Source: a virus (Duplodnaviria; Caudoviricetes). Taken from it: DNA of 64,000 bases. Where the stretch lies: the IMG/VR virus record IMGVR_UViG_3300033121_000786, positions 45,841-109,840 of that record. One strand, given 5' to 3'. The notes beneath the pieces were generated by a model that was not told where the DNA came from, did not search any database, and was given only the letters and a program-made list of their open reading frames with translations. A program made the translations under genes and the position numbers. Of the stretch, positions 1-48,577 are shown piece by piece (position 1 is the first letter of the stretch; every line of letters begins with the position of its first letter).

Positions 1-1314
1 TGGTCCTCTATCCCTTGCAATATTTGCAATTGCTTTATGTGATAATTTATCACCAAATTTAGTCAGTAATGTTCTATCTAATTCTGGCGACTTTTCACTA
101 ATCTCATCCAAAAGGGGTTCTGTCACTTTATCTTTATGATGTGATAATATCTTTTCATGTGTTGATGGGTTTATTTCCGCAATCCTGTGTAATATGCTTG
201 GGTTTGTATCATATTCTTTTGGATTATCTAATATTCTATGATGTAAATCAGGATTATTATATAACAAATCTTTAATTATATATAATGGTGTTTTAGGATT
301 ATTAATTATTGCTTTATCATGACTTTCATCATGATAACCATTTAATCTAGCTCTTCTAAAATCATCTGAAGATAATGCTCCATTCTTAATTTTATTTTCA
401 TATTTCTGCTTATGAATCTGTTTTTCTTCATCAGTTAATGGTGCAGAAATTCGCTTATCTTTTTCTGAATGATCATCTTGATATACGGATGGATCAAGTT
501 TATATTCTTCGCCTTTTTTTAAAGGAAAATTTTCTTCTGCCCATTTTGAAACAGAATTATGAAAAGTTCTATGCACATCATCTTCACCGTAATGCTTTGG
601 CGCAGGACGTAATACCCGATGACCAGAAGTTGTTGAAATAAAAGGTTGTAAAGCAATTCTTGCTGTTGCTGTTTTAGGATTATTTGGATCAGTTTCATCT
701 TTGTGTACATTATATGCTACAGCACCACCATTTTCTACATCAGCATCAAGATTTGATGCAGCATGATCACAAGCACCAAATTTAGCACAACTTCGCCAAG
801 GTTTTAGATGTGAACTTTTTCCTTGTATAGCATAAGGATGATTACTAACAATAATCTTTCTATCAGAATCCGGTTTTAATGGTTTTCCGACCCAACGAGT
901 TTGTTTGTCTGATGCATTTCTTCTATAAGTTTCTGGATCGTAATCATCAACAGAATCATTTGCTTGATTTTGTGCATCATTATAATCCTTTAATAATTTA
1001 GGATCACTTTTAATAACAGAAATTAAAGGTTTTTTAAATCCAGGTCTTGATATCCCATTTGGATCAGTATAATCTGGTGATTGTATTGTTTTATGATCAA
1101 CTTGTTTCCAATGACCATGTATAGATGGATTCTTCTTTAAATGATTATCAATTCTATCTTGTAAAATATTTTTAATTGGAATCTCTGACCAACCCGTTTC
1201 TTTTGGAATTACATGAGAATGAAAATCATTATCCGGTGTTAATCGTTTTTTATTAACAATTTTTTGTTCTGTTGGTGTTAAATATTCCCGAATAAATGAT
1301 TTAAAATTTAACAT
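1..1314 (-). CDS. His-rich late protein with capsid-targeting-like N-terminus (putative internal head/ejected protein); 3' end runs off the window
   Basis: Not in the ORF track because it is truncated. ATG at 1314-1312 reads MLNFKSFIREYLTPTEQK... with an open frame to base 1. N-terminus resembles the T4 internal-protein CTS (MKTYQEFIAE); late promoter just upstream. Confidence 0.75.
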   Translation of the reverse strand, partial: MLNFKSFIREYLTPTEQKIVNKKRLTPDNDFHSHVIPKETGWSEIPIKNILQDRIDNHLKKNPSIHGHWKQVDHKTIQSPDYTDPNGISRPGFKKPLISVIKSDPKLLKDYNDAQNQANDSVDDYDPETYRRNASDKQTRWVGKPLKPDSDRKIIVSNHPYAIQGKSSHLKPWRSCAKFGACDHAASNLDADVENGGAVAYNVHKDETDPNNPKTATARIALQPFISTTSGHRVLRPAPKHYGEDDVHRTFHNSVSKWAEENFPLKKGEEYKLDPSVYQDDHSEKDKRISAPLTDEEKQIHKQKYENKIKNGALSSDDFRRARLNGYHDESHDKAIINNPKTPLYIIKDLLYNNPDLHHRILDNPKEYDTNPSILHRIAEINPSTHEKILSHHKDKVTEPLLDEISEKSPELDRTLLTKFGDKLSHKAIANIARDRGP

Positions 1315-1345: not shown

Positions 1346-1353
1346 TATTTATA
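1346..1353 (-). promoter_or_regulatory. T4-type late promoter TATAAATA
   Basis: Exact TATAAATA on the minus strand ~30 nt upstream of the ATG at 1314; gp55 is encoded in the window. Confidence 0.7.
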
Positions 1354-8328: not shown

Positions 8329-9552
8329 ATGCGAAATCCACCAGATGCCATTTGTGAATTAGAAAATCTTAACATTAAAGATAAAGCAATATTATTAAAA
8401 GAAGAAATACAAGAAAGTAATTTATATTTATTTACTGGATTTTATTGTGCTTTAAATCCACATATTACTTTTGGTGTTAAAAAAATACCAGAAAAAAAAG
8501 TAATTGAAAATTCCCATGAATTATTTTTCCCCGAGTTTTTTGAAAATTTAAAAAAATTAGCAACAAGAGAACTCTCTAATGATACTGCTAAAGAATTAAT
8601 TAATTCAATGATGGAAAGATCATCAACTCATATGTGGAATAATTTCTATAGACGAATTCTTACTAAAAATATGAAATGTGGTGTTACTATAGATTTAATA
8701 AATTCTTGTGCGAAAGAATTAGATACTCCAGGATACTTAATTCCAAAATTTTCTTATCAATCAACAATACCATATTCTAAAAAGATTAATTTATCTGGAG
8801 AAATAATTTTACAACCAAAAGTTAATGGTGAAAGAATATTTATTACAATATATCCAAATAAACTGGTTCAATTATTTAATAAACATGGAACTGAACTTAC
8901 TCAGTATAATGAAATTAAAAATGAATTAATAAGTCTTGCTGAAGATATTAATGTACCAATGATGTTTGACGGAATAATTACTTTTGATTCCCAGAAATTA
9001 GTTTTATTTGATACATTACCTCTTGGGGATTTTGAAAAAGGACAATGCCAAATATCTCAAAGAGTTAGATTAGTCAATTTACAATTATTACCATTAATGC
9101 GTAAATTTAATTATATTACCATTATTCCATATGTTTTACTTAATTATGATGAAGAAAGCGGAAAAACTGAATTTAATAGATTTTTAAACGAATGTATAGA
9201 TACTGGATATAATGGAATGATAATTAAAAATGCAAATTCAGAATATAATTGTTCAAAAAATTCTAATTGGATGTCAATAGATTTAAATAAAATCATAGAG
9301 TTATATGATATTGAATTTATTGAAGAAAATAATAAATTAATCTCATTAATTGGATATGCTTTAGATAATAATGGAAAATCAATAAAAATTGTTTTTGATT
9401 CAGAGTTGACAGAAGAAGAAAAAGATAATTTTATTAATAAAAAGAAGAATTTTGTTGACAAATTTTTAATCGTAAGATATTATATAAGATATAAAGAAAA
9501 TGATCATTATAGATTACTTTTTCCAAAATTCTATCCTGTTTCTAGTAGATAA
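8329..9552 (+). CDS. ATP-dependent DNA ligase-like protein (gp30 family), degenerate motifs
   Basis: gp30-like N-terminal domain (TFGVKKIP, RRIL.KNM.CG); motif I KVNGER, III MFDGI, IV YNGMIIK; C-terminal OB remnant LLFPKF. Confidence 0.75.
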   Translation: MRNPPDAICELENLNIKDKAILLKEEIQESNLYLFTGFYCALNPHITFGVKKIPEKKVIENSHELFFPEFFENLKKLATRELSNDTAKELINSMMERSSTHMWNNFYRRILTKNMKCGVTIDLINSCAKELDTPGYLIPKFSYQSTIPYSKKINLSGEIILQPKVNGERIFITIYPNKLVQLFNKHGTELTQYNEIKNELISLAEDINVPMMFDGIITFDSQKLVLFDTLPLGDFEKGQCQISQRVRLVNLQLLPLMRKFNYITIIPYVLLNYDEESGKTEFNRFLNECIDTGYNGMIIKNANSEYNCSKNSNWMSIDLNKIIELYDIEFIEENNKLISLIGYALDNNGKSIKIVFDSELTEEEKDNFINKKKNFVDKFLIVRYYIRYKENDHYRLLFPKFYPVSSR

Positions 9553-39547: not shown

Positions 39548-40738
39548 ATGAATAAACCTTGGAAATTGATGGAAAATGCTATCACATATCAGGATAAAAT
39601 TAAATTAATTGAATTTATACTTTGTTCAGATAAATTTACTAATGGAGAAAAAGTTAAACAATTAGAAAATGAATGGAACAAATGGTTGGGTTCAGAGTAT
39701 TCTTTATTTGTTTCATCTGGATCAACTGCAAATTTTTTATTAATTGCATCCATAAAAGAATTATATAACCTTAAATCTGGTGATAAAGTCCTTGTTCCTG
39801 CTTGTACATGGACGACTAATGTTTCACCGATAATTCAATTGGGGTTAACCCCAATTTTTTGTGATATTCAATTTAGTGATTTTAGTTTTGATCATTCTAA
39901 TTTAGAATATATTTCTAAACAACATCCCGATATAAAATTAATTTTTGTTACACATTTATTAGGATTTACTTCAAAAGCAAGATCATCTGGTATTTTACAA
40001 GAGTTGTTTCCTAATGCATTAATTATAGATGATGTTTGTGAATCTCATGGATGTACATATGATAGTGGTAATAAAATTGGTTATAATAGTTTAGGTGCAA
40101 CTTTTAGTACATATTTCGGACATCATATGAATTCTATTGAAGGCGGGTTTATTTCAACTAATAATGTTGAGTTATATGATTTAATGAAAATGAAACGTAG
40201 TCATGGAATGGCTAGAGAATCTTCAAAATTTGAACTTTGGTCTGAATTATATCCTAATATAGATAAACAATTTTTATTTATTACTGATGGATATAATTTT
40301 AGAAATACTGAATTAAATGCTGTATTAGGATTATCCCAATTAAAACAATTAGATAAAAGTATAAAAATTAGAAATGATAATTATAAAGAATATTATAATG
40401 TTATAAAAAATTATACTTGTTGGTTTTATGATATTGCGTCGTATATAGAAAAAACAAAAAGTAATTTTGCATTCCCATTAATTTCATATAGAAAGGAAGT
40501 TATTGATGAAGTAAAAAAATTATTATCCGAACATAATATTGAATATAGACCAATTGTGTCTGGTAATTTACTTAAACATCCATTCTTAAATGATTATTCA
40601 GTTTGTTCAAATAAAAAAGTATTAAATGTTGATATTATACATGATAATGGTATATATCTTGGAAATAATCAATTTGTAAATAAACAACATTTTGATTTAT
40701 TGTCAAAAATTTTACAGGAATTAATATGGAAAATTTAA
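39548..40738 (+). CDS. colD: GDP-4-keto-6-deoxymannose 3-dehydratase (ColD-like)
   Basis: SSGSTAN, D.CESHG, FSTYFGHHM.SIEGG (His instead of Lys), RSHG, GYNFR, RPIVSGN. Confidence 0.85.
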   Translation: MNKPWKLMENAITYQDKIKLIEFILCSDKFTNGEKVKQLENEWNKWLGSEYSLFVSSGSTANFLLIASIKELYNLKSGDKVLVPACTWTTNVSPIIQLGLTPIFCDIQFSDFSFDHSNLEYISKQHPDIKLIFVTHLLGFTSKARSSGILQELFPNALIIDDVCESHGCTYDSGNKIGYNSLGATFSTYFGHHMNSIEGGFISTNNVELYDLMKMKRSHGMARESSKFELWSELYPNIDKQFLFITDGYNFRNTELNAVLGLSQLKQLDKSIKIRNDNYKEYYNVIKNYTCWFYDIASYIEKTKSNFAFPLISYRKEVIDEVKKLLSEHNIEYRPIVSGNLLKHPFLNDYSVCSNKKVLNVDIIHDNGIYLGNNQFVNKQHFDLLSKILQELIWKI

Positions 40739-41520
40739 CGCAAATAACCAAACAATATAATATTGTTTTTGTTGGTCCAGTAAGAAATTGTGCTCCATTT
40801 TTAGATAAGATATTTAATAATATAGAACGGATTGGTTCTTTATTTAAATCTTATTCTTGTGTATTTGTAGAAAGTGATTCCACAGATAATAGTTTACAAG
40901 TTTTAGAATCATATGCAAACAATAAAAATAATATTCATGTTATATCATTAGGAAAATTAGAATTTAATATTCCATCAAGAACAAAACGAATTGCAACTGC
41001 AAGAAATGTTGGAATTGAATATTGTGAAAAATCAGGAATTTTAGATTCACATGAATTTTATGTTCAAATGTGTGTTGATGATGTAAATTCTCAAGAGATT
41101 GATTTGAATGGAGTTCTTTCTTGTTTTAAATATGATTTAGAACAATGGGATGGAATGACTGCAAATCAAAATAGATATTATGATTTATGGACTTTACGAT
41201 GTAAAAAATGGTTAGAATATGATTGTTATTATGAATTAAATAATAGGCCAGAATATATGTCGTATGATGATGCTGTCAATATATTTATTGGTTCAAGATT
41301 TATATATCTTCCAAAAGAGTATGGTTTAATTGAAGTTGATTCCGCTCATGGTGGATTATCTATATATAAATCTTCTATAGCAAAAGGTTGTAGATATAGT
41401 GGATTTAATCAAGAAACTAATTCCGAAGAATCTGATATATTACAATTCTGTCGTGATGTTAAACACAAAGGAGGAAAAATTTTTATTAACACCGAATTAA
41501 TAAACATTAATAACAATTAA
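40726..41520 (+). CDS. Putative GT-A glycosyltransferase (paralog 2)
   Basis: Colinear with 38715-39545 along its whole length. Confidence 0.75.
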   Translation: MENLTQITKQYNIVFVGPVRNCAPFLDKIFNNIERIGSLFKSYSCVFVESDSTDNSLQVLESYANNKNNIHVISLGKLEFNIPSRTKRIATARNVGIEYCEKSGILDSHEFYVQMCVDDVNSQEIDLNGVLSCFKYDLEQWDGMTANQNRYYDLWTLRCKKWLEYDCYYELNNRPEYMSYDDAVNIFIGSRFIYLPKEYGLIEVDSAHGGLSIYKSSIAKGCRYSGFNQETNSEESDILQFCRDVKHKGGKIFINTELININNN

Positions 41521-41521
41521 A

Positions 41522-41529
41522 TATAAATA
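41522..41529 (+). promoter_or_regulatory. Late promoter TATAAATA
   Basis: Exact consensus ~35 nt before the TTG start at 41564, with a GGAG SD between. Confidence 0.75.
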
Positions 41530-41563
41530 CTAGATAAATAAACAAATTTATGGAGTATTATAA

Positions 41564-42451
41564 TTGTTATCGTTTAAATCTTTTCTAAATGAAGAAAAAC
41601 TTCGTCAAGGATTAGATCATTTTAATAACCTATCTTATGAAAAAATAGGTAAATTATTATCTTCTGATACTTTACAAGGAACTATTACACCAAAAACAGA
41701 TGGTGCAGCTGGTGCAGTTGGTTGGGATGAAAATGGATTTTTTACCCAATCTGGTCGTTCTGATAAAGTACGAAATGCTGGCGATTATAGTGCATACACA
41801 AGAAAAAAACGCGGGGAAGATGCAGATTTAACTATATCATCAAGTTATGATGCAATGCATCATCATCTTCAAAATAATAAGAAGTTAACTCAATATTTAC
41901 GATCCCGGCATGAATCAGGACAACCTTCTACATTAAAAGGTGAGTTTTTTTTGAGACATCTTGCTAAACCAACTGAAAAAGGATTAACGTTTGTTGCTAC
42001 TTCTTATAATCCAAATTCTATGGGTTCAACCGGAATGTTTATTTTACATCATAAACTTCCAGAAAATTCTACACATAATCCAGATGATATTCATCATTTA
42101 AGTGATAAACATGTAACCTTTGATCATGACAAATCAGAAAATAATAAATTTTCTGTTGATACTCAACATGAAAAGAATTTGTATTCATCAATAAATCCTA
42201 GTATTTTAAAATCAAGAAAATTAAGTGATTCTGCAAAAAAAGAAGATGAGACGGAAAAATTAGCAACAATTAAAAGTTTTTTGGAAACAAAATTAAAACA
42301 TCATACAAGTAATCTTTCTCCTAGACCTTGGGAAGTAAAAGATGAATCTGAAGGTCATGTTTTTCATTTAGACAATGGAGAACGATTCAAAATACAAAGT
42401 GATTCATTTAAAAATTTCAAAGATCAAGAAAAATTAAGGAAAAATAAATGA
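41564..42451 (+). CDS. RNA-ligase-like covalent nucleotidyltransferase with capsid-targeting-like N-terminus
   Basis: MLSFKSFLNE; motif I PKTDG, III KGEF, IV EGHVF, V RFKI. Confidence 0.65.
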   Translation: MLSFKSFLNEEKLRQGLDHFNNLSYEKIGKLLSSDTLQGTITPKTDGAAGAVGWDENGFFTQSGRSDKVRNAGDYSAYTRKKRGEDADLTISSSYDAMHHHLQNNKKLTQYLRSRHESGQPSTLKGEFFLRHLAKPTEKGLTFVATSYNPNSMGSTGMFILHHKLPENSTHNPDDIHHLSDKHVTFDHDKSENNKFSVDTQHEKNLYSSINPSILKSRKLSDSAKKEDETEKLATIKSFLETKLKHHTSNLSPRPWEVKDESEGHVFHLDNGERFKIQSDSFKNFKDQEKLRKNK

Positions 42452-44331
42452 TAAGACTTTTATATGAAGGTGGAAATTGGATGCATCCTGTTGATCCTAA
42501 TGTACCTGATGGACCAAAAAAAGTTGCTGATCCAATTGAAGTTAAACATAGAGATATACAAAAACCACATTTTGTTGAAATGTTTAATTCTATTGATAAT
42601 GGTTTTAAAAAACAACATGGACATAATCTTTTTGGAAATGCATTAAGAAATAATAATTTTTCATCTGGTTCATCTGAAGTATATAATGACCCATCCGTTT
42701 CAACAAAAAGAATGTCAAAGGCAAAACCTACAATGGGTGATTATGATGTTCAAATACCAGAAGAACATCATCAAAAATTAAGAAAATATTTGCAAGTTGG
42801 ACAAAAACATGGAAAGTTTACAATTAGACATATAAAAAAAGATGGAACACAAACACATATTATTATGCGACATGAAGATACTGGTAAAGAACATCAAATA
42901 GATTTTGAACCAGTAGAATATGATCAAAAAACTCAAGAACCAACGCCACATGAAAAATTAGCTCATAATAGTCATATTACCGATCTTGAAAGAGGATTAA
43001 AAGGTGTTCATCATAAACTTTTGATGCAAAGTGTATTTTCTGCACATGCAGTTCCGGGATATCTTCAGAAAGAAACTGGAAGAGGTAAAGCAAGAACAAC
43101 TGTTGTGTCTGATGAAGAAGGTAATTTTCCAACTTCTACTTATTCTGTAGATAAAGGGGTTAGAGAAAAATGGCAAAATGTAGGTTCAAAAAATGGAAAA
43201 CCGATATTTAGAGAAAAAAAACCATCTGAATCTGAATATTCAAAAGATTTACCTACAATCTATAGATCAATGTTCAAACGTGAACCGACAGAAAATGATA
43301 TATCTGATATTCATTCATTTAATGGTATTATTGGTCATATTAAAAAACATATTCCATCAGAACATCATAGTAAAATTTTCAAAACTTTTGTTGAAAAATT
43401 ATGGCATAAATCTGCACAAGCAACAAGTTTAAATAAAGATACTGATAAAAAAATAAAAGAAAATGCTTATAATGAATTAGCAAAACAATTTCCAAATGAA
43501 CATGAAAAACATAAGGATTATGTTGAGAATTTAAAATCTGAATATTATGGACCAAATAATGCTAATAAATTTAAATTAGATAATATGTCTGAAGAATTTA
43601 TATTAGAAAGCGCTAATATACATGTTGCATTTGCTGCGGGAAGATTTACAGGACCAACAGTTGAACATCATAAGTTATTATCAAGACTTTTTAATATTCC
43701 TGCCCATCATCACAGAGTATATGTTATGGGTCCATTTACACAAGAAGAAACTACTGACAAAGACCCATTAACTGTTAATGAAAAAATCGAACAATTAAAA
43801 AAATTATATCCAGATCATGCAGAATCTTTTATTGCAGGAACGGAACGTCATACTAAAAATCCACAAAAGGCATTAATACATACATGGCATACATTAAATA
43901 AACCTAATAAAGAAATGCATTTATCAGTTGTTGCGGGTTCTGGTAATGAAGGAATAAAAAATAAATCATCTGCTGGTGGTTCATTAGAAAGTTATAAATC
44001 TATATTAGATAAATATAATAAAACCAAATTTCCAGAAAGTATTAATCCAGATGGATCAAAACGTGGTGGTGATTTACGGATGAATTATGCATCTGTAAAT
44101 TACATAGATAATCCTCGTGGAAAATCATCAGGATCATTAATGAGAAAAACTGCAAGGGAATTAGATTATAATGATTTAAATCATGTTAAAAAATTTAAAT
44201 CATTATTACATCCTGATATGTCTATAGAAGATACCCAATCTTTAATGAAAAAAATTAAAGATAGACATTTAATGAAAAAAGAATCAATTTTAACGAGAAT
44301 TAAAAACATAATATTTGAAAAAGATGAATAA
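42448..44331 (+). CDS. Two-domain protein: pol-beta-type nucleotidyltransferase plus HIGH-family nucleotidyltransferase
   Basis: N-domain SGSS...GDYDV...QIDF; C-domain GRFTGPTVEHHKLL...DPL..EK...VAGS...SGSLMR. Confidence 0.7.
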   Translation: MIRLLYEGGNWMHPVDPNVPDGPKKVADPIEVKHRDIQKPHFVEMFNSIDNGFKKQHGHNLFGNALRNNNFSSGSSEVYNDPSVSTKRMSKAKPTMGDYDVQIPEEHHQKLRKYLQVGQKHGKFTIRHIKKDGTQTHIIMRHEDTGKEHQIDFEPVEYDQKTQEPTPHEKLAHNSHITDLERGLKGVHHKLLMQSVFSAHAVPGYLQKETGRGKARTTVVSDEEGNFPTSTYSVDKGVREKWQNVGSKNGKPIFREKKPSESEYSKDLPTIYRSMFKREPTENDISDIHSFNGIIGHIKKHIPSEHHSKIFKTFVEKLWHKSAQATSLNKDTDKKIKENAYNELAKQFPNEHEKHKDYVENLKSEYYGPNNANKFKLDNMSEEFILESANIHVAFAAGRFTGPTVEHHKLLSRLFNIPAHHHRVYVMGPFTQEETTDKDPLTVNEKIEQLKKLYPDHAESFIAGTERHTKNPQKALIHTWHTLNKPNKEMHLSVVAGSGNEGIKNKSSAGGSLESYKSILDKYNKTKFPESINPDGSKRGGDLRMNYASVNYIDNPRGKSSGSLMRKTARELDYNDLNHVKKFKSLLHPDMSIEDTQSLMKKIKDRHLMKKESILTRIKNIIFEKDE

Positions 44332-45154
44332 AGTCATATTTTTAGTTGGTCCACCAAGATCAGGAAAGGATATCATTGTAAAAGAAGTTTTTAATAACTA
44401 TTCTTTAAATGAATTTACTCTTGAACAGACTAAATTAGCATTAACTACTAAGATTAATGAAAATGATAAAAAATATTCTATTCTAAGAAAAGAATCGTTT
44501 ATCATTTCAACAAATGCATATAATTTTGATGATATTAAATCGGTTAAATTAGTATTGGAAGAACTTGGATTTATTACATCTATGATTTTTGTTAATGTTT
44601 CTGAAGAAGAATGTTTTAAAAGATTTGCAACTCGACATAATATTACTGAATCAGAATTACGATCTAAATTTAAATTATCAAAACAAAATTTAAATAGATT
44701 TAAAACTCTCTTTGATAATTTTATTGAGTATGATAACAGTGTAGTATTAGAAGATAATATGTTGTTAAATCCAATAAAAGAATTTGTGGATTTCTTTTTA
44801 TATAAAAATATATATCAATTATTTGAGAATAAAAAGTCTAAATCTAAATCCCGATCATTACAAAAAAAATTATTAGATAAGATTGGAGACAAATTAGGTA
44901 TATCAAATAAAATTTCGTCTGATAATATTTCTACACAAGATTATAAAATACGAAATTCAGGAATGGGATTTCCTTCTACGGTTGGTCCTATGTATAATGA
45001 ATCTGTATTTTCAAGTGATTTTTCTGATTTACCAGCATTTGCTGCTCCTGAACGAAGTATTCCTCCAGAAGAAACTTCTAAAGGAAATCCATCAGTAATT
45101 GCGAAAATAAAAACAATTGCTAATAATAAATTTAAAAAGAAAAAATATGACTAA
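44324..45154 (+). CDS. P-loop kinase (PNK/zeta-toxin/AAA_33-like)
   Basis: IFLVGPPRSGKD; MIFVNVS.E....RF..R lid motif. Confidence 0.72.
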   Translation: MNKVIFLVGPPRSGKDIIVKEVFNNYSLNEFTLEQTKLALTTKINENDKKYSILRKESFIISTNAYNFDDIKSVKLVLEELGFITSMIFVNVSEEECFKRFATRHNITESELRSKFKLSKQNLNRFKTLFDNFIEYDNSVVLEDNMLLNPIKEFVDFFLYKNIYQLFENKKSKSKSRSLQKKLLDKIGDKLGISNKISSDNISTQDYKIRNSGMGFPSTVGPMYNESVFSSDFSDLPAFAAPERSIPPEETSKGNPSVIAKIKTIANNKFKKKKYD

Positions 45155-45686
45155 ATTTCAGCACAAATTAATTATGTTATATGAGTTTAAACAACTTGGT
45201 AAAAAAATGACTCCATTAAGAAAGTTTCTTTGGTCAATTGGATTAGATTATCGTGATATGACATCAAAACAAGTTGATCAATGGGCAGAAAAAAAACGGT
45301 ATAAACTTTATAAACAAAGGAATAAAATTAAATCTATTATAAAACACAGTCAAGTTCAAGAAGAAAAAAGTTCAATACCCATGAGTCCTACTTGGCCATC
45401 AAGAAGTGCAATAAGACGTAAGAGAGCGTTAAAAAGAATTAAAGATTTTAAACTTGATGTTTTAAATCATGGTGGAATTGAAAAAAGTGGGGAAGGAGAA
45501 ATGTTATATAAGATTCCTCATCAATCAACGAGTCAAACCCATTCACATCGTCTTCGTTCATTTAAAGCAATTGGATCAAATAAAATTGCAGTTTTAAAAC
45601 GAAGAATGTCATTTGATCCAAAAGGAGGACATCGTTCAATTTATACTCATAAGACACTTGATTCACCAAAAGGAAGATTTAGATGA
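45147..45686 (+). CDS. Basic hypothetical late protein
   Basis: Lys/Arg-rich; overlaps neighbouring genes. Confidence 0.55.
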   Translation: MTKFQHKLIMLYEFKQLGKKMTPLRKFLWSIGLDYRDMTSKQVDQWAEKKRYKLYKQRNKIKSIIKHSQVQEEKSSIPMSPTWPSRSAIRRKRALKRIKDFKLDVLNHGGIEKSGEGEMLYKIPHQSTSQTHSHRLRSFKAIGSNKIAVLKRRMSFDPKGGHRSIYTHKTLDSPKGRFR

Positions 45687-45849: not shown

Positions 45850-45857
45850 TATAAATA
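45850..45857 (+). promoter_or_regulatory. Late promoter TATAAATA
   Basis: Exact consensus upstream of 45894. Confidence 0.75.
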
Positions 45858-46421: not shown

Positions 46422-46817
46422 TTGAAATCATTTAAAGAATTTGTTATGGAACTGCATGATGTTCCTGTTGTTTCTATTGAAAAAACTCAAGTAGAATTGG
46501 ATGAACCAGAAACAGTAAATGAGATTAACAAAAATCTTCAAATTGTACTATCAAAAGATTTTGCAAATATTGGTGAAGGATTAAATGCTTGTAAAAAAAT
46601 TTTAACTATGTATGGAATTGAATTACCACAAATTAATTTTAAAGATCAAAATAAAGGTAAAATTTTAGTTAATATTGGACAATTTAAAAGTTCTGGTGAA
46701 AATCATCATAATATAACCGGACCATTTCAAGAAAGAAATGAACACCATACTTTTACATTTACTTATGAATTAATTAATGGCAGTTATGATGTTCATGCCG
46801 AGGTAAAACAAAAATAG
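46422..46817 (+). CDS. Late protein with capsid-targeting-like N-terminus
   Basis: TTG start, MKSFKEFVME. Confidence 0.65.
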   Translation: MKSFKEFVMELHDVPVVSIEKTQVELDEPETVNEINKNLQIVLSKDFANIGEGLNACKKILTMYGIELPQINFKDQNKGKILVNIGQFKSSGENHHNITGPFQERNEHHTFTFTYELINGSYDVHAEVKQK

Positions 46818-47406: not shown

Positions 47407-47847
47407 ATGGGTATTACATTTAAAGAAATTAAATCTGAACTTGAACATCTTGAAGAAGCAGATTTATCACAACAAGGACAAGTTGATCCAAAAATATATA
47501 TGAGTCAATTTTTATCAAGACTTTTTGCTGCAAGAAATGCAGCACATTTTGCACATTGGATGACTACAAGTTATGCTCAACATATTGCATTACAAACATT
47601 TTATGAAACTATACTTTCTTTAGCAGATACACTTGCAGAAAGTTTTATTGGAAGATATGGAAAACTTGAAGGATTTCCCAATGTTAAAGAATCAGCAACT
47701 GATCCATTAATTATTGTCGGAAATTTAACAAAATGGATAGATGCAAATAGAGCATCATTAACAGAGAATTCAGAAATTCAAAATCAAATTGATGAAATTG
47801 TAACATTATGTAATCAAACTGCGTATAGATTACGAGAATTAAGATAA
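47407..47847 (+). CDS. Dps/ferritin-like four-helix protein (DUF5856-like)
   Basis: H..HW.T.SYAQH.AL..FYE......D..AE...G.YG; QNQIDEI.......Y.L. Confidence 0.75.
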   Translation: MGITFKEIKSELEHLEEADLSQQGQVDPKIYMSQFLSRLFAARNAAHFAHWMTTSYAQHIALQTFYETILSLADTLAESFIGRYGKLEGFPNVKESATDPLIIVGNLTKWIDANRASLTENSEIQNQIDEIVTLCNQTAYRLRELR

Positions 47848-47848
47848 T

Positions 47849-48577
47849 ATGTCAATTATTAAAAGCATAACTTCTTCATTCAAATCTTCAGTTTCTGAAA
47901 TAGAAGAACCCCTTCAATTAGAAATACCAAAACGTAATCCATTTACTTTTGAATTTACGTTTGAAAAATTTAAAAAATTAATACCTCTTTCTGATAGTTT
48001 AGCAGAAGAATGGTATGATGTACTATATGAAAATTTACCAAAATATAATATTAATACTATTAATAGAGTTGCTGGATTTATAGCACAAACTTCTCATGAA
48101 AGTTTTGATTTTAAAGTCTTAGAAGAAAATTTATATTATTCAGCAGCAGGATTGAGAAAAACTTTTCCAAAATATTTTAAAACTCTTGCAATTGCAAAAC
48201 AATATGCAAAGAAACCTAAATTAATTGCTAATAGAGTTTATGGAAACCGATTAGGAAATTCTCCAAAAACGGATGATGGATGGAATTTTCGTGGAGGTGG
48301 ATTAATACAATGTACAGGAAAAGGTAATTATGAACAATGTTCTTTATTTTTATTTAAAGACAATAGATTAGTTATTAATCCAGATTTATTAAGAACAAAT
48401 AAAGAAATTGCAACTTTATCAGCATGTTGGTATTGGACAACTCGTGATATTAATAAGTATTGTGATAAAAAGGATATCGTAGGAATGACTCGTGCAATAA
48501 ATGGTGGTACAAATGGATTATCTTCAAGAAAAGTAAGATTTCAAAGAGCAATATTAGTATTATCATTAAATGCGTAA
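47849..48577 (+). CDS. GH19 endolysin
   Basis: FIAQ..HES, ENL.YS, IANRVYG.R.GN, FRG.GLIQ.TG..NY, INGGTNG. Confidence 0.92.
   Translation: MSIIKSITSSFKSSVSEIEEPLQLEIPKRNPFTFEFTFEKFKKLIPLSDSLAEEWYDVLYENLPKYNINTINRVAGFIAQTSHESFDFKVLEENLYYSAAGLRKTFPKYFKTLAIAKQYAKKPKLIANRVYGNRLGNSPKTDDGWNFRGGGLIQCTGKGNYEQCSLFLFKDNRLVINPDLLRTNKEIATLSACWYWTTRDINKYCDKKDIVGMTRAINGGTNGLSSRKVRFQRAILVLSLNA

Follow-up and report, generated by a model that had tools for sequence, protein, structure and literature searches.

Almost all that is known of the use of a short leader to bring proteins into a phage head comes, to our knowledge, from T4 and its small inhibitor proteins. The capsid-targeting sequence (CTS) that serves as the leader, and cleavage after a glutamate, are both documented (PMC9958956, PMC5694885, PMC3012670). 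The operon described here has in common with T4 IPI, IPII, IPIII and Alt a short leader at the N-terminus, alike in pattern and with an (L/I)xE end, predicted late expression, and a gene for a protease of the gp21 family. Its cargo, like that of T4, is non-structural and presumably injected, and Alt is likewise an enzyme. The nature of the cargo is different: predicted ligase, Pol X-like and HIGH folds take the place of small basic inhibitors or an ADP-ribosyltransferase, and one of the cargo proteins is a two-enzyme fusion with a candidate internal cut site.

A second parallel is provided by the polyvalent proteins of phages and conjugative elements, which are thought to be delivered with DNA and freed by proteolysis; the survey of these proteins describes minimal Pol-beta nucleotidyltransferases in Firmicute elements and reports no covalent-nucleotidyltransferase ligases among them (Iyer et al. 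2017, PMC5512222). Release in the present case would depend on the head protease and not on an embedded peptidase.

The enzymes themselves invite comparison with sets that mend nucleic acids. T4 Pnkp and Rnl1, and the fungal and plant Trl1 enzymes, lack Pol X-like and HIGH partners, and differ from the present operon in that no 3′-end-healing phosphatase or cyclic phosphodiesterase is found in it; T4 Pnkp and Rnl1 are moreover early, cytoplasmic and leaderless, unlike the late, leader-bearing ORF1 and ORF2. African swine fever virus (ASFV), with its Pol X and ligase, and eukaryotic NHEJ, with Pol mu/lambda, Lig4 and PNKP, offer a further comparison. The features in common are the joint presence of a minimal Pol X-like enzyme, apparently lacking an 8-kDa domain, of an ATP-type ligase fold and of a kinase from the polynucleotide-kinase clan. 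The repair enzymes of ASFV travel in the virion.

Layout of the operon

In the window, the 64,000-nucleotide stretch of DNA that was analysed, a T4-type late promoter, TATAAATA, occupies 41522..41529 (+), 42 nt upstream of the TTG start of ORF1 (41564-42451, +; 295 residues). The ATG of ORF2 (42448-44331, +), a two-domain fusion of 627 residues with the N-terminus MIRLLYEGGN, overlaps the stop codon of ORF1 as ATGA. The stop of ORF2 is in turn overlapped by the ATG of ORF3 (44324-45154, +), which has 276 residues counted from that codon and whose homologues begin at the same Met. An earlier note had described one late promoter ahead of three overlapping genes, and its coordinates and sequences are confirmed.

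Overall, TATAAATA is not enriched (15 found, 25.6 expected). Its weight as a promoter derives instead from its constant distance of 41-44 nt from a start codon at four sites on the + strand (41522, 45850, 47166 and 60368). Scans for sigma-70 promoters and terminators gave no signal above chance, and neither a nucleotide search nor tblastn with ORF1 found a match among 50,697 phage records. The best overall explanation, which we think somewhat better than an even bet, is that an uncultured T4-like phage here transcribes a cargo operon late in infection.

Leaders, candidate cleavage sites and packaging

The first ten residues of ORF1, MLSFKSFLNE (41564..41593, +), form a candidate CTS with an LxE end. 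When compared directly with the N-termini of IPI, IPII, IPIII and Alt taken from NC_000866, they match MKTYQEFIAE of IPII/IPIII and MKTFKEF of IPI. F4 and E10 do not vary among 18 homologues, and residues 1-11 have pLDDT <50 in the AlphaFold model. Among 839 candidate starts in the contig, the tight pattern M..FK.F[ILV].E is observed 3 times against an expectation of 0.0035. A strict leader is carried by 24 of 87 family proteins as compared with 22 of 770 other ORFs (odds ratio 13, p 9e-14), and most of these 22 are operon neighbours.

Two further leader-bearing proteins are encoded in the window, neither of them with a family match. One, of 131 residues (46422..46817, +; MKSFKEFVME), lies in an operon behind the late promoter at 45850, is syntenic in the relatives L002, L004 and L012, and is a candidate for a further internal protein within this cargo. 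The other is a 603-residue protein beginning MLNFKSFIRE, part of which falls within the window (1..1314, -) and which has its own TATAAATA at 1346-1353 (-).

The leader of ORF2, MIRLLYE (42448..42468, +), is three residues shorter than most. Its LxE end abuts an invariant GGN, and in relatives the corresponding sequence reads ML+FK+F[LI]xE/GGN, where the slash marks the candidate cut. Short leaders of the ORF2 type recur among relatives (MIQHLLE, MVKLFE, MDYLFE). Residues 1-8 of ORF2 are disordered in the AlphaFold model, and orthologues in phages that are not of T4 type have no leader, starting exactly at the predicted mature end, MGGN.

Candidate cleavage sites are LNE/E in ORF1, LYE/G in the ORF2 leader and ILE/S in the ORF2 linker. 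The linker (aa 377-388; 43576..43611, +) is predicted to be disordered, with pLDDT <50, and includes EEFILE/S at residues 382-388, the cut falling at E387/S388. This agrees with the earlier note, which had placed the site at the junction of the two nucleotidyltransferase domains. The further suggestion that the fusion is cut there draws support from a gene in the genome for a gp21-type protease (Peptidase_S77, 95 bits, G000:C1:25880-26323), and from the linkers of relatives, 21 of 22 of which have [ILV]xE followed by S/A/G/N/E/D despite variable length and sequence. [LIV]xE is also present in the linkers of fused relatives, stand-alone N-domain proteins terminate at the position of the ORF2 linker, and the phage capsid protein contains QILTE/GD.

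Evidence from virions is available for a homologue of the Pol X-like domain. The product of gene 1-56 of Campylobacter phage IBB_35, with the leader MKLSELMFILE/GGN, was found by mass spectrometry of purified virions with 17% coverage (PMC3322345 Table S2), data that place it in the virion and not specifically in the head. Because the ORF1 and ORF2 proteins carry a T4-like tag and cutting sites, they are probably injected with the phage DNA; for this phage, we infer packaging, cleavage at the candidate sites and injection. The earlier proposal that the enzymes of the operon are packaged is well supported for ORF1 by the leader match and pattern counts, and moderately for ORF2, but it does not extend to ORF3: with no leader on that protein, here or in any close relative, nothing in these data speaks for its packaging.

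It is conceivable, though we consider it unlikely, that the enzymes are never packaged and instead act late in the cytoplasm, for example on phage DNA that awaits packaging or on RNA damaged by the host, and that the N-terminal motif is a shared translational or folding feature. Orthologues without leaders in Xanthomonas phage BUDD, Vibrio phages and L013 would then be readily explained, as would the bare N-terminus of ORF3 and the truncated leader of ORF2. Against this reading, the leader agrees with the T4 CTS, as defined by experiment, in its length, its spacing and its final Glu. It is also carried by unrelated proteins encoded on the contig and, in relatives, by neighbours in the operon; and it is disordered and is lost precisely at the domain boundary in leaderless orthologues. 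The presence of the leader-bearing homologue in IBB_35 virions also argues for packaging.

Predicted enzymes

ORF1 is predicted to be an RNA-ligase-fold lysine nucleotidyltransferase. The catalytic residues K44/D46/G47, E127, E263/G264 and K276 are invariant in 34 diverse relatives, down to 18% identity, and K44, D46 and G47 of motif I (KxDG) are also invariant among 18 close relatives. Motifs III, IIIa, IV and V of the covalent nucleotidyltransferases follow in order, with E127, V144/Y148, E263 G264 and K276 invariant. The AlphaFold model and PDB comparison reveal the fold of an adenylyltransferase domain and, together with the residue invariance, bear out the earlier assignment of a KxDG/GE/EG/K covalent nucleotidyltransferase; conservation of catalytic residues among homologues, on which that assignment had been staked, thus holds at identities as low as 18%.

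The protein consists of the adenylyltransferase domain alone, with a helical insert. It stops 19 residues past motif V, where the model has only a terminal helix, and the OB-fold domain of DNA ligases and capping enzymes is absent. Motifs IV-V align with T4 Rnl1, and the structural ranking places ORF1 nearer RNA ligases than DNA ligases; the structural alignment is limited to Rnl1 residues 13-252, and ORF1 does not have the C-terminal helical tRNA-binding domain of that enzyme. In Pfam, neither ORF1 nor the Pol X-like domain has a match, even with 41 members scanned individually. The RNA_lig_T4_1 profile found no match in the genome, a weak test since its control also matched nowhere. A role as replicative ligase can be rejected, because the phage has a separate canonical DNA ligase at 8329-9552.

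The N-domain of ORF2 (aa 8-376; 42469..43575, +) is predicted to have a Pol-beta fold with a helical C-terminal extension. The Pol X/Pol-beta signature is present, with hG[GS] as G74 S75, DxD as D98 x D100, and D152 (E154) as the third carboxylate; 41 relatives all retain G74 S75, G97 D98 x D100 and Q150 x D152 without change. The spacing of 22 residues between GS and DxD is longer than usual. No extra N-terminal domain that could correspond to the 8-kDa domain appears in the model, in which the N-domain begins at residue 8. The match to Pol X is one of fold, with moderate Z and undetectable sequence similarity, and in this respect, as in the affinity of ORF1 for RNA ligases and its missing OB domain, the locus differs from the ASFV and NHEJ sets. 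The earlier label of pol-beta nucleotidyltransferase thus stands as to fold and can be narrowed to Pol X-like. With this identity, gap filling and sealing, of DNA or RNA, become a likelier logic than RNA tailing.

The C-domain (aa 389-627; 43612..44331, +) is predicted to be a HIGH-family nucleotidylyltransferase, NMNAT/PPAT-like, in agreement with the earlier note: the AlphaFold model and PDB comparison indicate the Rossmann-like fold of this family. GRFxGPTxEH and SGSxxR are nearly invariant, and in ORF2 the residues GRFTGPTVEH (T404...H407) and S561 G562 S563...R566 are at least 90% conserved. The best structural matches are NadM, archaeal NMNAT and the adenylyltransferase domains of NadR. 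Scores for PPAT and NMNAT are equally good, so the substrate cannot be read from the fold. The domain departs from NadM, NadR and PPAT in its first motif, TxEH and not HxGH, and in its attachment to a Pol X-like enzyme, a fusion that we do not know of in those families. Searches of PDB sequences with each protein and with family profiles returned nothing apart from the kinase P-loop. The T4 proteins NrdC.11 ("nucleotidyltransferase") and 57B were considered as relatives and are unrelated to these families.

In profile searches, the HIGH protein of the window has no Pfam match and in PHROG matches "cytidyltransferase" only, and the BUDD homologue is above the CTP_transf_like threshold at 28.7 bits. 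The PHROG label bears on another reading, that the domain is a sugar- or polyol-phosphate cytidylyltransferase belonging to the 16.5-kb glycan island that adjoins the operon, and that the operon is the tail of this island. The last glycosyltransferase of the island (40726-41520) does lie directly before the operon, but we regard this reading as highly improbable.

ORF3 is predicted, from its sequence, to be a P-loop kinase of Zeta-toxin/AAA_33 type. Walker A (GxxxSGKD) and the lid R103...R107 (RxxxR) are invariant among relatives, and the closest neighbours of ORF3 in the Atlas are viral Zeta_toxin/AAA_33 clusters (score 0.92); both refine the P-loop kinase that the earlier note had recognised at 44324. 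The Pfam match of ORF3 itself is weak (AAA_33 18.5 bits, cut-off 27), and a fused relative in L026 scores 40.3 bits for Zeta_toxin and 35.8 bits for AAA_33. The protein also has a conserved C-terminal region. Alignment to T4 Pnk and to adenylate kinase is limited to the P-loop; just 24 residues align in the T4 Pnk profile comparison, so polynucleotide kinase cannot be called by this route.

The kinase gene immediately follows the HIGH domain, and this proximity, together with the NadM, NMNAT and NadR matches, might suggest a module devoted mainly to cofactor salvage, in which an NMNAT-like HIGH enzyme and a NadR-like kinase convert nicotinamide riboside to NMN and NAD after NAD-depleting defences, the other enzymes being unrelated cargo. 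That reading seems distinctly unlikely. HIGH domains occur, fused to ligase and Pol X-like domains, in proteins that have no kinase; the kinase is of Zeta/AAA_33 type, and its fused forms join ligase and Pol X-like domains without a HIGH domain of the window type; and the equal PPAT scores leave the substrate unfixed.

A conserved trio and its possible role

In 63 of 80 related viral loci an ORF1-like domain lies next to a Pol X-like domain or is fused to it, and both orders occur. Gene neighbourhoods were taken from IMG/VR loci. The ligase family comprises 629 clusters, many of them polyproteins of 1,000-2,078 residues, in which the usual order is leader, Pol X-like domain, ligase and HIGH transferase. 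The C-terminal remainder of the fusions is identified as a HIGH transferase by GSFxGHxGH and SFTxLR motifs and FAD_syn matches. The ligase, Pol X-like and HIGH transferase folds are one conserved functional unit. The co-occurrence of four domains envisaged in the earlier note therefore applies to these three, which are linked or fused; the kinase, counted there as a member of the set, lies outside the conserved core. In phage BUDD the trio is present as neighbouring genes without leaders, and it is also leaderless in Vibrio phages and L013; packaging is therefore no inherent part of what the trio does. A possible connection with 7-deazaguanine DNA modification was considered, because QueE/TGT-like genes occur close to the BUDD and CP220 loci; a search that covered 61% of the genome of the present phage detected no TGT.

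In the mechanism that we favour, with some confidence, the leaders would steer the ORF1 and ORF2 proteins into the prohead core, where the gp21-type protease of the phage would cut both after [L/I]xE and would also split ORF2 into its two halves. On ejection, the enzymes would enter the cell along with the DNA and mend broken polynucleotides. Repair of breaks, in DNA or RNA, at the very start of infection is our best guess at the job of the module. Filling or extension of a 3′ end would fall to the Pol X-like enzyme and sealing to the ligase, and 5′-OH ends might be phosphorylated by the ORF3 kinase. That the HIGH enzyme provides or recycles an adenylylated cofactor or intermediate is an ad hoc assignment, and RNA end healing and NAD regeneration, as functions, are guesses.

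A more specific proposal, offered tentatively as rather doubtful, is that the trio and the kinase are an injected break-repair kit, the phage counterpart of the ASFV Pol X/ligase set. It would mend nicks, gaps and abasic-site breaks in the incoming DNA, or RNA cut by the host, before phage genes are expressed, with the NMNAT-like enzyme making or recycling the adenylyl donor. If so, large aquatic phages would have a widespread, undescribed function of counter-defence or self-repair in the first minute of infection.

The wider interest of the operon is that a leader of the kind that loads T4 heads is present in aquatic T4-like phages far from T4, and that a conserved trio of nucleotide-transferring enzymes bears it. 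The families of these enzymes lie outside Pfam and comprise about 630 sequence clusters, along with numerous giant polyproteins. If injection does occur, it is routine for phages to deliver, alongside their DNA, a ligase and a small polymerase, which would give a new view of the first seconds of infection, whether the incoming genome is then being repaired or nucleases are being countered, and would offer new compact ligase and polymerase scaffolds. The idea is testable now, because cultured phages hold parts of the module: the trio without leaders is available in BUDD, and a tagged Pol X-like protein, one already detected in virions, in the Campylobacter Firehammerviruses. Like ejected and polyvalent proteins, the relatives are multi-domain, at 1,000-2,200 residues, and combine enzymes, and some of the polyproteins bear lysozyme with LysM, ParB_N or kinase domains.

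The late operon and its phage

The window covers the 3'-terminal 64 kb of a viral contig of 110 kb (27.8% G+C; CheckV completeness 61%), and its source is an uncultured T4-like myovirus whose primase is only about 42–43% identical to the primases of cyanomyoviruses and of the Methylophilales phage Melnitz. The arrangement described in the earlier note, one late promoter before three overlapping genes, is borne out. The T4-type late promoter TATAAATA (41522–41529, +) lies 42 nt ahead of ORF1 (41564–42451, +; TTG start, 295 aa), the stop of which is shared with the start of ORF2 (42448–44331, +; 627 aa) as ATGA. ORF3 (44324–45154, +) begins at an ATG within the final codons of ORF2, and its homologues use the Met at 44324, not an upstream TTG. 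TATAAATA shows no enrichment across the A+T-rich window (15 observed versus 25.6 expected); the plus-strand copies at 41522, 45850, 47166 and 60368 are each followed by a start codon at a distance of 41–44 nt, as would be expected of a real late promoter.

The promoter is found 2 bases past the stop of the last glycosyltransferase in a long sugar island, and the operon might be taken to belong to this neighboring glycan island. Such membership is very improbable: the operon has its own promoter, its adjacency to the island is not conserved, and its enzyme domains occur as fusions. The phage has a separate replicative-type ligase besides ORF1, a canonical ATP-dependent DNA ligase encoded at 8329–9552 (+) (DNA_ligase_A_M, 29 bits), and ORF1 therefore has another job. 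Past the late operon, on its downstream side, lie genes for a T4 rI.-1 homologue (DUF5856, “starvation-inducible regulator”) and, after it, a GH19-type endolysin (47407–48577, +).

Enzyme folds and family architecture

ORF1 and the N-terminal half of ORF2 match neither Pfam families nor PDB sequences, so that the fold assignments are based on alignments and predicted structures. Taken with profile and Atlas cluster matches for ORF3, these indicate that the four folds named in the earlier note are right, and the catalytic motif residues are conserved among relatives. For ORF1, with 33 metagenomic homologues, the AlphaFold model (mean pLDDT 90.3) has T4 Rnl1 (E 1.3e-4) and other ligases as its top Foldseek matches. 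Motifs I, III, IV and V (K44-x-D46-G47, E127, E263-G264 and K276) are invariant in 34 relatives with identity down to 18%, and the EGYV...FKIKSD stretch of T4 Rnl1 aligns with motifs IV–V. Neither an OB domain nor an Rnl1-type C-terminal domain is present in ORF1.

The model of ORF2 comprises two domains (pLDDT 86.6). The N-terminal domain, previously termed a pol-beta nucleotidyltransferase, retains the nucleotidyltransferase assignment but is better described as Pol X-like: Foldseek matches it to DNA polymerase lambda (probability 0.99), and a Foldseek-independent search reaches the same call. Its nearest Atlas clusters are viral nucleotidyltransferases, and all of 41 relatives keep G74 S75, D98-x-D100 and D152 unchanged. 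ORF1 ranks closer to RNA ligases, and the ORF2 N-domain closer to DNA polymerases. In ORF3 the Walker A and RxxxR motifs are both invariant. Its own Pfam matches fall below threshold; a relative inside a 2,202-aa fusion matches Zeta_toxin (40.3 bits) and AAA_33 (35.8 bits), and the nearest Atlas clusters of ORF3 are viral Zeta_toxin/AAA_33 kinases (score 0.92). Histidine is unusually frequent in ORF1 (18 of 295 residues) and in ORF2 (40 of 627), at about 6%; ORF3 has one.

In IMG/VR, a Pol X-like relative was detected at 191 loci, and 80 of these were retained for profile mapping. An ORF1-like ligase is adjacent to or fused with the Pol X-like domain, in either order, in 63 of the 80, and the proteins containing these domains reach 2,202 aa. 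In fusions running from Pol X-like domain to ligase, the remaining ~400 residues belong to a diverged form of the HIGH transferase, which shows GSFxGHxGH...SFTxLR motifs as well as FAD_syn matches. The ligase profile recovers 629 clusters among 1.84 billion representatives (261 at E of 1e-30 or better), and many of these are polyproteins of 1,000–2,078 aa with the consensus order leader, Pol X-like, ligase, HIGH transferase. Extra domains vary, and include Zeta/AAA_33 kinase, lysozyme with LysM, HD, ParB_N, amidoligase and several DUFs. A 1,602-aa polyprotein (L031:5968–10773) joins a Pol X-like domain to LysM and phage lysozyme; another, of 2,202 aa (L026:5050–11655), combines ligase, Pol X-like domain, Zeta-type kinase, DUF5872 and DUF6321. 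The ORF3-type kinase lies inside a polyprotein in one relative, and Xanthomonas phage BUDD has the trio of ligase, Pol X-like and HIGH folds as neighboring genes without leaders.

The linkage, fusions and domain order across the family thus define a conserved unit of three nucleotidyltransferase folds, with the kinase as an accessory. Of the four domains grouped in the earlier note, the kinase falls outside this core. The window layout (ligase, then Pol X-like plus HIGH, then kinase) is a split and permuted form of the common polyprotein.

Leaders, candidate cleavage sites and virions

ORF1 and two further window proteins begin with leaders comparable to the N-termini of T4 internal proteins and Alt. 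In T4 (read from NC_000866; slashes mark actual or candidate cuts) IPII and IPIII start MKTYQEFIAE/A, IPI MKTFKEF... and Alt MELITELFDE/D; ORF1 starts MLSFKSFLNE/E. A 131-aa late protein (46422–46817, +) starts MKSFKEFVME, nearly the IPI start; it matches no family, is syntenic in three relatives, and is a candidate small internal protein. The third leader-bearing protein of the contig, of 603 aa, spans the window start (1–1314, −, on to G000:C1:45343 in whole-contig coordinates) and begins MLNFKSFIRE; it belongs to neither a Pfam nor a PHROG family, and TATAAATA (1346–1353, −) lies 39 nt upstream of its gene. Of 839 candidate starts in the contig, 3 fit the pattern M..FK.F[ILV].E, against 0.0035 expected.

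Most relatives of ORF2 start with ML+FK+F[LI]xE, after which comes an invariant GGN. The window ORF2 has a shortened leader, MIRLLYE/GGN, and comparable short forms (MIQHLLE, MVKLFE and MDYLFE) are seen elsewhere. Since orthologues in other phage types (Vibrio phage SRILMA, BUDD and locus L013) start exactly at MGGN, the leader is an add-on outside the fold. Where ORF1 is fused ahead of ORF2 (proteins P0077–P0082), [LI]xE/GGN is usually kept at the junction. In the models, residues 1–11 of ORF1 and 1–8 and 377–388 of ORF2 are disordered; these leaders and the ORF2 linker account for all long disordered stretches of the two proteins, one loop excepted.

Among 87 distinct family proteins, 24 carry the strict ten-residue leader; among 770 other ORFs, 22 do (odds ratio 13, p 9e-14). 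These 22 are mostly same-strand neighbors of the module, which therefore sits within clusters of tagged genes; a HAD-type phosphatase is one of these neighbors. ORF3 has no leader in the window phage or in any close relative, and thus nothing in this analysis indicates that it is packaged. The earlier inference that these enzymes are packaged is accordingly well supported for ORF1, moderately for ORF2 with its shortened leader, and not supported for ORF3.

The T4 capsid-targeting sequence (CTS) is a propeptide of 10–20 residues that suffices to load foreign proteins; gp21 trims short N-terminal peptides off IPs and Alt, and T4-type proteases cleave after Glu (PMC3012670, PMC5694885, PMC9958956). 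A gp21-family prohead protease is encoded in the genome (Peptidase_S77, 95 bits). In the major capsid protein (G000:C1:28973–30271, outside the window), QILTE/GD lies some 24 residues ahead of a conserved VRRALPNLIAYD block and is likely to be where maturation cleavage occurs; it shares the [LI]xE form of the cargo sites. The cut proposed earlier at the ORF2 domain junction gains support: the linker varies in length and sequence, yet in 21 of 22 relatives FILE/S (E387/S388) is retained as [ILV]xE, with the next residue small or acidic, and stand-alone N-domain proteins terminate at this site. In the polyprotein fusions, linkers carry [LIV]xE[A/D/G/S] immediately ahead of the next domain.

Campylobacter Firehammerviruses encode Pol X-like homologues (26% identity over residues 2–355; profile E 1.5e-54). 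The homologue in phage vB_CcoM-IBB_35, gene 1-56 (39251–40417 of contig 1), starts MKLSELMFILE/GGN. ESI-MS/MS of purified IBB_35 particles identified gene 1-56 among 38 virion proteins with 17.0% coverage, compared with 2.5% for the portal and 48.9% for the capsid protein (PMC3322345, Table S2). A tagged family member is thus located in IBB_35 virions, with no indication of the virion part. Action in the cytoplasm with no packaging would be the alternative for the window enzymes, and is considered unlikely.

Proposed delivery and possible chemistry

Packaging is the preferred reading, and the observations at hand are the folds and their conserved catalytic residues, the linkage and fusions, the leaders, the sites, the protease gene, the late-promoter placement and the homologue in virions. 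The leaders would bring ORF1 and ORF2 into the prohead core, where ORF1 may be trimmed after LNE and ORF2 after LYE. A cut at ILE/S would separate the Pol X-like enzyme of ORF2 from its adenylyltransferase, and the trimmed products could then be ejected with the DNA. CTS cargo and polyvalent or ejected multi-enzyme proteins are already known as concepts. A survey of polyvalent proteins includes neither covalent-nucleotidyltransferase ligases nor Pol X-like enzymes (PMC5512222), and no literature linking “RNA ligase” with capsid targeting was found except a T4 omics study.

The chemistry is independent of packaging, because leaderless trios exist; packaging looks like a delivery mode adopted in T4-like lineages. 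The regular pairing of a Pol X-like enzyme with a ligase, together with a Pnk-clan kinase, has a single known logic, in which the 3' end is filled or extended and the 5' end phosphorylated before the two are sealed, as in Pol X/ligase repair sets and RNA heal-and-seal systems. By analogy, the window enzymes may carry out these steps on DNA or RNA. The role of the HIGH enzyme is the weakest link of this scheme: possible activities are adenylylation of a 5' phosphate and synthesis of NAD or a different adenylylated dinucleotide. We regard it as quite improbable that the module serves mainly for NadR-like NAD salvage, since the HIGH domain accompanies the ligase and Pol X-like domain and not the kinase.

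In two cultured phages, Xanthomonas phage BUDD (locus L085; ON758385.1 4934–16335) and Campylobacter phage CP220 (L083; 83807–85975), genes of the 7-deazaguanine pathway (QueE-like/radical SAM, TGT) are found close to the Pol X-like gene. No TGT was found within the ~61% of the window phage genome available, and a link between Pol X-like genes and hypermodified DNA is offered as an open thought. A very basic 189-aa protein without a leader (46 K/R versus 14 D/E; 45117–45686, +) overlaps the end of ORF3; its position is kept in four related loci (L002, L003, L004 and L012), and a role as DNA-binding partner for the operon is possible.
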